A DNA stretch of 64,000 bases from Escherichia phage ECP2301. Where the stretch lies: the sequence record OR880646.1. One strand, written 5' to 3'. The notes beneath the pieces were generated by a model. It was not told the origin of the DNA, did no database searches, and saw only the letters and a program-made list of their open reading frames with translations. A program made the position numbers and the translations under genes. Below, piece after piece: positions 31,150 to 32,026 of this stretch. Each line of letters starts with the position of its first letter. Within the stretch, counting starts at the first letter, position 1.

Positions 31150-31179
31150 AACTTTGTGCAATCTTTGGAAAATAAAAAA

Positions 31180-31197
31180 GGACTCCCGAAGGAGTCC
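31180..31197 (-). terminator. rho-independent terminator downstream of 72 aa ORF
   Basis: GGACTCC-TTCG-GGAGTCC on - strand followed by T6. Confidence 0.7.
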
Positions 31198-31202
31198 TCA
31201 AC

Positions 31203-31421
31203 TTATGCTTTCTGCTTACCAAAACGAGAAGCATCATCTCGAAGAACCGCACGTGCTCGGCGCATGATCTTCTCAACAGTTTGATTGATACGAGAGTTCG
31301 ACCCACGCTTGTAGCCAGCGCGTTTAGAATCACCAACTTTCTTTTCAACTGCTTTCTTTGCTTTAGCTTGTTTTGCCATTATAAATTCTCTTTTAAATGA
31401 AAATGCAGGACTTATTGGCAT
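31203..31421 (-). CDS. hypothetical small basic protein
   Basis: 72 aa from ATG 31421 (no SD) or 58 aa from ATG 31379; Lys/Arg-rich; terminator downstream. Confidence 0.5.
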   Translation of the reverse strand: MPISPAFSFKREFIMAKQAKAKKAVEKKVGDSKRAGYKRGSNSRINQTVEKIMRRARAVLRDDASRFGKQKA

Positions 31422-31777
31422 TGCCTGCGCAAGCCCTCAAGGGGAACATAGGTTTTTGAATATTTAACGACCAGGATAACCATAAACCCGTCATCATACC
31501 TTATAGCTCTTATCTGTTGCACACCGTTAGCTTAAAGGTTCCGGGTTCGATTTCTCGAGGATAAGATATATACTGATGGATATATAGGCCTTGAGGCGTA
31601 CTCCCGATTGGCCATCACCTCGGGGTAGCATGCACTTGCCGCTATAAGAATAACATTCAAGAGGTACACCGTAAAACTGCCGGGGTCTTAAAACTATAAT
31701 GATTCGCAAATCATTAATCAGACAGTTCGACGGCTCCTCGTTTTAACTTCACACTAAGGCAGTGACTCTCCAATAAA
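31422..31777. other. 356 bp non-coding, GC-elevated, inverted-repeat-rich island between 30.9-position ORF and rIII
   Basis: no credible ORF; several GC stems (GCAGG...CCTGC, repeated CGGGGT, AATGATT-CGCA-AATCATT); tRNA-like fragments TAGCTC and GGTTCGATT. Confidence 0.5.
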
Positions 31778-32026
31778 TTACTTCAGTGTTACCACAAAGT
31801 GACGAACTGCTTTTCGTGCAGCAGAAGCCAGAGGCTTAGCATATTTAAGTTCATCTTTTTCCTGAAGCTCAGCAGCTAATGCAGTTTGAGCAGGATTCAG
31901 ATGTTTGAAATAACGCAGGATTTCAAGAGCTTCGGCTTCAACATCAATAGATGCGCCATAGTTTTCGTGACCATTATTCCATGCGTTTCGTTGCAGTTCA
32001 AGAGCGTGTTGTAATTGTTTAATCAT
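31778..32026 (-). CDS. rIII: lysis inhibition accessory protein rIII
   Basis: 82 aa, position between 31 and the 30.x cluster. Confidence 0.8.
   Translation of the reverse strand: MIKQLQHALELQRNAWNNGHENYGASIDVEAEALEILRYFKHLNPAQTALAAELQEKDELKYAKPLASAARKAVRHFVVTLK

Follow-up and report, generated by a model that had tools for sequence, protein, structure and literature searches.

The closest described counterparts of the element reported here are rnaC (species 1) and rnaD (species 2) of phage T4, structured non-coding RNAs encoded by T-even phages, which are co-transcribed with other genes and whose function is unknown. The element, here called core C, is a 149-nucleotide (nt) RNA located between the genes rIII and 30.9 of Escherichia phage ECP2301, in a stretch of 64,000 nt (record OR880646.1; hereafter the window) that derives from a Tequatrovirus (T4-like) genome and in which cd, 31.2, 31.1, 31, rIII, 30.9, 30.8 and the genes onward lie on the minus strand. 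The gap between rIII and 30.9 is a series of tandem RNA structure modules, in the minus-strand sense of both genes. Four modules are resolved by aligning the 30.9-rIII spacers of eleven phages, in the RNA-sense order M3, core C, M2, and M1, and the different parts of the gap differ in their distribution when compared by BLAST with 50,697 phage records. The connection with rnaC and rnaD lies in M3, whose homologues sit beside rnaD-like sequences in the tRNA clusters of the phages A7_1 and PsgM04F, while the window itself is without tRNA. Contrary to core C, however, rnaC and rnaD are encoded in a tRNA cluster and not in the rIII-30.9 gap, and no part of the gap is similar to them, with blastn at word size 7 returning only chance matches of 7-10 nt. 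The fold of core C is also far more elaborate, with heavier covariation, and T4 does not carry it.

Purine and lysine riboswitches are built as a junction closed by a stem P1, with loop-loop kissing. Core C shares with their aptamers a variable P1, covarying hairpins with loop-loop pairing, and invariant junction nucleotides, but differs from riboswitches in having no Rfam match, no recognisable expression platform, and no single downstream gene family, and in closing a transcription unit at its 3' end in Citrobacter phage Citrof4. Orphan RNAs with complex folds, such as GOLLD, ROOL, HEARO and similar ones, are frequent in phages and prophages, and all of them are in Rfam. The resemblance to core C includes the complex fold, the strong covariation, the association with phages, and functions that are unknown or have been found only recently. 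These RNAs are, in contrast, several hundred nt long and come from other host groups, and none of them matches core C in the Rfam scans.

Two further systems bear on parts of the gap. The leader of T4 gene 32 holds a pseudoknot serving as a translational operator, and M2 (but no other module) resembles it as a probable H-type pseudoknot that precedes a T4-like gene in its leader and is kept among T-even relatives. The promoter-early plus stem-loop (PeSL) cassettes, consisting of an early promoter and a terminator-like stem-loop, are responsible for modular shuffling in T4-type genomes (PMC2839356, PMC4122927). The modules of the gap are similarly short T4-like intergenic units that are shuffled, gained and lost between genomes. 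Unlike PeSL, the gap contains no sigma-70-type or late-promoter consensus, and core C, a multi-helix molecule of 149 nt, is under selection as an RNA.

Searches of Rfam 15 at E ≤ 10, covering riboswitches, ribozymes, sRNAs, group I/II introns, Y RNA, 6S, and other families, gave no match in 31422-31777, either as part of 1.2 kb or as an isolated 181 nt, and the gap of T4 likewise gave none; what these scans yielded were chance matches only, to a C-box-like UGAUGA in M2 and to the terminator after 30.9. In searches covering the full text of 8 million papers, by topic, by literal sequence, and by the names of the genes, no description of core C turned up, and it is classed here as a new family within the phage-encoded structured non-coding RNAs.

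Core C is a phage-restricted RNA with a complex fold

A covariance model (R1) detects a single copy of core C in the window. Its architecture comprises the stem P1, which closes the element, another five helices, and a kissing loop of 6 base pairs (bp) between the loops L2 and L3, organized around a multi-helix junction. The parts of the element are the following:

31500-31648, minus strand: core C, complex-folded RNA of 149 nt, from the 5' strand to the 3' strand of P1 (covariance model R1, 188 bits)
31641-31648, minus strand: 5' strand of P1, CUUAUAGC, which pairs with GCUAUAAG at 31500-31507
31630-31640, minus strand: invariant 5' junction GGC-AAGnGCAU, unchanged in 25 of 25 sequences
31596-31629, minus strand: hairpin P2 (GCUACCCCGA / UCGGG-A-GUA-C-GC), with 8 of 10 pairs covarying; its loop L2 holds UGAUGG at 31612-31617
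31567-31586, minus strand: hairpin P3 (UAUAUAU/GUAUAUA), with the 6-nt loop CCAUCA at 31574-31579 that kisses L2
31508-31566, minus strand: 3' domain with P4 (UCUUAUC/GAUAAGA), P5, P6 (ACCCG/CGG-U-GU), and the invariant stretches GAACC...GCUAACGGUGUGCAACA
31547-31558, minus strand: hairpin P5 (UCGA-GAAA-UCGA), with 4 of 4 pairs covarying

The sequence of P1 is unrelated between lineages and yet complementary within each, and all 7 of the P1 pairs counted in the alignment A6 are changed on both sides. Since complementarity is kept despite the unrelated sequences, this stem defines the boundaries of the element. Next to it, the GGC of the 5' junction may pair with GCC at 31587-31589, forming a 3-bp helix that is invariant in all 25 sequences and on which covariation speaks neither for nor against. 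The kissing helix between L2 and L3 is intramolecular and uses the whole loop of P3. It is found in six versions (UGAUGG/CCAUCA, CGAUGG/CCAUCG, CUAUGG/CCAUAG, CAAUGA/UCAUUG, UGUAUU/AAUACA, and UGCAUU/AAUGCA) and is 94.6% paired, although it is absent from the covariance model. A pseudoknot between the GGCC of L2 and the GGCC of J2/3 was also considered, but it was abandoned, as it is the L2-L3 kissing helix that covaries instead.

In the 3' domain, covariation involves 6 of the 7 pairs of P4 and 2 of the 5 pairs of P6, where A-U changes to U-A in Erwinia phage Cronus and C-G changes to U-A in Citrof4. The loop of P5 is GAAA or GUAA, that is, of the GNRA type, in most sequences, UAAA in a few of them, and is replaced by a longer, U-rich loop in the two that diverge most.

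The fold was scored on several sets of sequences. RNAalifold, applied to 18 distinct sequences, gives a consensus of 43 pairs, 16 of them compensatory. A hand-written structure evaluated on 31 sequences, of which 29 are distinct, has standard pairs in 95.8% of its cells, against 26-41% when the partners are slid by 1-3 columns; on the same set, 20 pairs are changed on both sides, against 3-7 in the slid versions, and the observed values are not reached by any of 500 column shuffles. In A6, which contains 25 distinct sequences with the divergent members included, pairing is kept in 96.6% of the pair cells and compensatory changes occur in 35 of 49 pairs, compared to 8-11 in the slid controls, and every helix of core C covaries with the exception of the 3-bp GGC/GCC. 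The strongest independent support comes from the divergent members, which are L024, Cronus, Yersinia phage JC221, Citrof4, and phage PKM.Lu.22.1. Besides the helices, around 40 unpaired nucleotides in junctions and loops are invariant, and the constant unpaired segments are GGCAAGnGCAUG, GGCC, CCnGGAaCC, and GCUAAC(G/A)GUG(U/A)GCAAC. Core C is a bona fide phage-restricted family of complex-folded RNA, and covariation backs an elaborate fold for what the original prediction, made from the sequence of the gap, had listed as one of its candidates, a small structured RNA.

The minus strand is shown to be the sense of core C by the 49 G.U cells of A6, by the GNRA loop of P5, which is readable only on this strand, and by the flanking genes, which have the same sense. 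Stops occur in all six frames across core C in every homologue examined, and these homologues differ by indels of 1-2 nt. The variable sites are distributed over the codon phases as 18/18/19, with no periodicity, and the open reading frames (ORFs) of the gap are without any match to a PHROG family. The existence of a non-coding gap of 356 bp between 30.9 and rIII, as originally proposed, is borne out by these data, and the gap has RNA-level structure on the minus strand. The only sizeable frame reported in it, a 60-amino-acid (aa) ORF starting at TTG and regarded as random, is located at 31527-31709 on the minus strand and is among those with no PHROG support.

In the GenBank records examined, the region of core C is either bare or placed under a spurious ORF, with no RNA annotation. 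Spurious coding sequences are annotated over it in OL362041.1, PP496997.1, MN508817.1 (JC221_170), and many others. Their labels include 'hypothetical protein' and, in two records, 'glycogen branching enzyme', and the one in JC221 is an antisense ORF of 58 aa.

Core C behaves as a horizontally shuffled cassette

The conservation of core C between phages is high and far exceeds chance. The central 135-150 nt are 91-96% identical across genera in which blastn can no longer align the flanking genes. The rIII proteins of the same genera are about 70-76% identical, which means that core C is better conserved than its neighbours. BLAST places core C in 403 phage records, from T4-like phages of Escherichia, Shigella, Yersinia, Klebsiella, Enterobacter, Citrobacter, Serratia, Erwinia, Edwardsiella, and others. 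R1 matches 15 of 40 rIII loci fetched from IMG/VR, all of them strongly and none more weakly up to E=1, indicating full presence or full absence; the model was run on the fetched loci, and more distant relatives may exist. All 13 metagenome matches are the same element, with a spacing typical of the T4-like copies. A loose gapped pattern scan of IMG/VR gave extra matches that were rejected as chance, as they fall in high-GC coding sequence. Outside phages, core C was not found in 5,426 complete E. coli genomes, in 72,556 plasmids, or in 185,579 bacterial species representatives, the latter covered by two gapped-pattern scans.

The modules of the gap appear in several orders. The order M3-C-M2-M1 is that of the window and of about a quarter of the Tequatroviruses, Moon and KMB17 have C-M2-M1, and the Klebsiella and Kanagawavirus phages have M2-(X)-C-M1. 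The 244-bp gap of T4 has the order M3-M2-M1 and that of RB32 M2-M1, in both cases without core C, which is also absent from G2540. Carriers and non-carriers are found within one genus, with core C present in Ge15, JS98, and PYPS2T and absent from T4 and RB32.

The element is also found in other genomic surroundings. Cronus holds a divergent copy at the rIII locus (155 bits), and two Straboviridae phages have core C at another locus: JC221 (89 bits) and the Pseudotevenvirus Citrof4 (84 bits). In these two phages, it lies 3' of small ORFs beside uvsY and converges on uvsW, and in Citrof4 no same-strand gene follows downstream. A third context is found in the Grimontviridae phage PKM.Lu.22.1, with a genome of 76 kb, where a 143-bit copy is located between unrelated genes and an intrinsic terminator follows around 40 nt later. 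The proteins neighbouring core C in the three contexts have no family in common. Core C behaves as an autonomous cassette that is horizontally shuffled, being gained, lost, permuted relative to its neighbours, and found at other loci and in another phage family.

The junction between M3 and M2 is a hotspot for RNA cassettes. At this same junction, other Tequatroviruses hold an unrelated hairpin of about 53 nt with a closing stem of its own (L097:1874-1926, L103:1844-1896, and the spacer of AndreasVesalius, L010).

Flanking modules and transcription unit

The features surrounding core C are listed here in the sense of transcription:

31778-32026, minus strand: gene rIII (82 aa), an ORF annotated as rIII in the near-identical phages Ge15 and T4; upstream neighbour, same sense as the RNA modules
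31752-31764, minus strand: small hairpin CACU-GCCUU-AGUG just past the rIII stop (5' part of M3), tentatively read from the sequence
31661-31739, minus strand: M3, irregular long hairpin (GAGG/CCUC, GCCGU/ACGGU, CUGUC/GGCAG, AAUGAUU-UGCG-AAUCAUU), from RNAalifold
31450-31492, minus strand: M2, probable H-type pseudoknot, with S1 formed by GACGGG (31487-31492) and CCUGGUC (31469-31475) and S2 by UGGUU (31478-31482) and AACCU (31450-31454)
31380-31448, minus strand: M1, with the GC hairpin CCCC-UUGA-GGG (31434-31444), the hairpin GCAGG...CCUGC (31405-31428), and the ribosome-binding region of 30.9
31203-31379, minus strand: gene 30.9, for a very basic 58-aa protein of PHROG 1427, whose function is unknown, when the T4-annotated start (MAKQ...) is used; an alternative ATG is located upstream at 31421
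31178-31199, minus strand: intrinsic terminator after 30.9, GAGGACUCC-UUCG-GGAGUCCUU followed by a U-run, predicted here and annotated in Ge15

The small hairpin past the rIII stop is conserved in PsgM04F, and a related piece is found after core C in PKM.Lu.22.1. The long hairpin of M3, whose terminal loop is of the UNCG type (UGCG or UACG), is supported by an RNAalifold consensus of 13 distinct sequences with 25 pairs, 5 of them compensatory, and 39 G.U cells. Its pairing amounts to 99.1% in the sense orientation against 88.0% in antisense and, together with the G.U cells, this means that the minus strand alone fits. M3 is present in T4, and sporadic homologues are found inside the tRNA clusters of A7_1 (Vequintavirinae) and Pseudomonas phage PsgM04F, adjoining rnaD-like sequences. 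The possibility that M3 is a general feature of Vequintavirinae was rejected in favour of sporadic transfer, given that A7_1 alone has it. The T-even 'stable RNA' modules seem to have moved between large phages that are unrelated, and the M3 homologues in tRNA clusters are the best available hint that the modules are stable RNAs processed like tRNAs. The T4 rnaD-like sequences of the two clusters, near the M3-like elements, are at L007:900-991 and L008:2237-2272.

The S1 stem of M2 is 95% paired, and two of its pairs vary (UA/AU/GC and CG/GC/UA); across phages, its outer pairs read GAC/GUC, GUC/GAC, GGC/GCC, GUG/CAC, or GUU/AAC. S2 is a duplex of 4-9 bp with a different sequence per genus, found in 16 of 16 sequences when scored by duplex folding with no fixed alignment. 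Loop 3 is A-rich and contains the invariant CGUUAAAUA. Nearly all enteric T4-like phages, T4 and RB32 among them, have M2 conserved ahead of 30.9, and it may act as a translational operator for this gene. In M1, the GC hairpin motif GUACCCCUUGAGGGC, or a variant of it, is found again next to core C in several genera and at several loci, Citrof4 included (L146, around 1398-1413; spacers L002, L003, L006, and L024), and may be a boundary, processing, or 3'-end-protecting hairpin. Reading M2 and M1 as a promoter or a PeSL was discarded in favour of RNA structure, since no consensus is present and the stems covary.

The sequence strings originally quoted for the gap are all present, with CGGGGT at 31620 and 31682, TAGCTC at 31505, and GGTTCGATT at 31545. 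The inverted repeats among them, GCAGG...CCTGC at 31405-31428 and AATGATTCGCAAATCATT at 31698-31715, correspond to real hairpins, although they belong to the flanking modules M1 and M3 and lie outside core C. The gap measures 356 bp with the upstream ATG of 30.9 and 398 bp with the T4-type start. Its enrichment in G+C, also part of the original prediction, holds as well, with 0.438 against 0.363 for the whole window, in the 96th percentile of 356-bp windows, which makes it elevated but not unique. The statement that the gaps of this genome usually span 0-60 nt was loose, as the neighbouring gaps in the operon measure 40-150 nt.

The start of 30.9 is ambiguous between 31379 and 31421. The 58-aa form beginning with MAKQ is annotated in T4 and most genera, and a 72-aa form in RB32 and others. 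The corresponding extension of 14 codons overlaps the hairpins of M1 and is not conserved outside Tequatrovirus.

Consensus scans detect no sigma-70-type promoter, no late-promoter box (TATAAATA, allowing up to 1 mismatch), and no intrinsic terminator within the gap. The modules therefore most simply belong to the rIII-30.9 transcript, and they would be transcribed within this unit of rIII, RNA modules, and 30.9, which is closed by the terminator at 31178-31199.

Two GGAG motifs are present on the minus strand, one at 31768-31771, just past the rIII stop, and the other at 31734-31737, at the base of M3. GGAG is the recognition sequence of the endoribonuclease RegB. RIII, in turn, has been linked to the control of RegB (PMC9409239). 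A sub-threshold Rfam match to the Rhizobiales small RNA Atu_C8 at 31164-31247, minus strand (31.4 bits for a gathering score of 50), was dismissed, as it merely reflects the GC-rich UUCG terminator hairpin and the U-run after 30.9.

Possible roles of core C

The reading favoured here, with a confidence slightly better than even, is that core C is a stable trans-acting RNA that binds a specific partner and comes from an autonomous phage-restricted cassette. Core C would be released, or would accumulate, as a stable RNA and then act in trans. Its own P1 insulates it from its surroundings, and the helices, as a rigid scaffold, would hold out the invariant nucleotides in a surface or pocket for specific binding. 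The partner could be a host or phage macromolecule, or a small ligand. What we infer here is its processing to a stable RNA, its trans action, and the type of partner. A role in trans is preferred because of the insulating P1, the occurrence of the element in at least three unrelated gene contexts, the lack of a downstream same-strand gene in Citrof4, and the presence of M3 homologues in the tRNA clusters of two other phages.

Several observations weigh against this proposal. No promoter, terminator, or processing site is found at the borders of core C in the window, so that a discrete core C RNA species is putative. In most genomes, core C is located upstream of 30.9, a position also compatible with a role in cis, and the search of the window for complementarity to its invariant 16-mer returned the element itself alone. 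Regarding the fold, A6 is a model-guided alignment, fitted to the covariance model, and the family is shallow, with most copies more than 90% identical and many of the compensatory cells inherited from few events. The thermodynamic stability of core C is unremarkable (z = -0.5), z-scores being uninformative.

The competing explanation that survives best, possible though improbable in our judgement, is that core C is a cis-acting mRNA element, either a riboswitch-like aptamer or a protein-binding operator, controlling the translation, termination, or stability of the downstream message, which is 30.9 in T4-like phages. The build of core C is that expected for a riboswitch in its conserved aptamer-like fold, in which the closing P1 varies, the helices covary, loops kiss, and the junction nucleotides are invariant, and in Tevenvirinae it is always found upstream of 30.9 and in the same sense. 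In PKM.Lu.22.1, the intrinsic terminator around 40 nt downstream of core C lies ahead of the next gene, and the module that separates core C from 30.9, M2, is probably a pseudoknot like those used by T4 as a translational operator. However, the genetic context of a riboswitch is missing, as the genes downstream of core C differ among the three contexts, are not related to one another, and constitute no coherent set, and the copy of Citrof4 ends a convergent unit with no same-strand gene after it. The spacer to 30.9 is not conserved either, its length and sequence being wholly different between genera (M1 only, or M2 plus M1). T4 and RB32 express 30.9 without core C, and no conserved alternative pairing with the 3' strand of P1 is seen.

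Core C could also be a new self-cleaving ribozyme or an RNA-processing element that cuts the polycistronic transcript, for instance separating rIII from the downstream RNAs or making defined ends. Small self-cleaving ribozymes are common in phage genomes, and the size of core C, its compact pseudoknotted fold with kissing loops, and its invariant unpaired block are typical of them. Its position between cistrons, and at the 3' end of a transcription unit in two contexts, would suit such an activity as well. This explanation is nevertheless unlikely, given that core C has no similarity to any ribozyme family of Rfam 15, even at E ≤ 10, and that a candidate site of cleavage cannot be assigned to it.

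If core C were a mobile insertion, selfish or neutral, that passes from phage to phage during co-infection through recombination or homing, its high identity would reflect recent transfer rather than function. This would account for the presence or absence of core C at a precise junction among close relatives, for the other 53-nt hairpin cassette at the same site, and for the near-identity across genera together with the Grimontviridae copy. The substitutions in core C are, however, overwhelmingly compensatory, which implies long-term selection on the RNA fold and makes a purely selfish insertion very unlikely. The copies of JC221 and Citrof4 have altered nearly every helix and kept the unpaired nucleotides. 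In addition, core C lacks terminal repeats other than P1 and is not accompanied by an endonuclease or a transposase, and mobility is compatible with function. A group I intron splitting an M3-M2 'exon' was rejected because its size would be wrong, Rfam gives no match, and the modules are independent and occur in other orders.

Finally, the readings as a small protein-coding gene, as the remains of a tRNA gene, or as DNA imported from a host, suggested only by the isolated strings TAGCTC and GGTTCGATT, by ORFs of 34-60 codons, and by the hypothetical proteins annotated in several GenBank records, retain a negligible probability and are refuted as far as sequence analysis reaches: ARAGORN finds 0 tRNA or tmRNA genes in the whole window and Rfam no tRNA at E ≤ 10; the bacterial genomes, plasmids, and PHROG families searched contain no match; the homologous phages show no conserved small coding gene, with stops, indels, and codon phase against it; and the supposed T-loop GGTTCGATT is on the plus strand, opposite to the RNA sense, where it is the complement of the covarying hairpin P5 and appears in homologues as TCCGA, TCTGA, or TCAGA with compensatory partners.

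A bolder version of the favoured proposal, which we regard as doubtful, is that core C is the founding member of a new class of phage RNA, defined by its function as a free-standing RNA of aptamer or ribozyme grade that would be deployed in trans during infection, sequestering a host factor or small-molecule signal or catalysing RNA processing. It would have spread as a cassette among virulent Enterobacterales phages and been missed for decades because T4 lacks it.

T4-like phages are the best-studied virulent phages, and yet core C is without RNA annotation in the records examined. The combination of a conservation better than that of the adjacent proteins, a kissing-loop fold of riboswitch or ribozyme grade, confinement to phages, and movement between loci and families usually marks an RNA with a specific biochemical job. 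The existence of carriers and non-carriers in the same genus makes a gain- or loss-of-function comparison straightforward. The rIII-30.9 gap is a second accumulation site for RNA modules in T-even phages, and it widens the question of the purpose of rnaC and rnaD.

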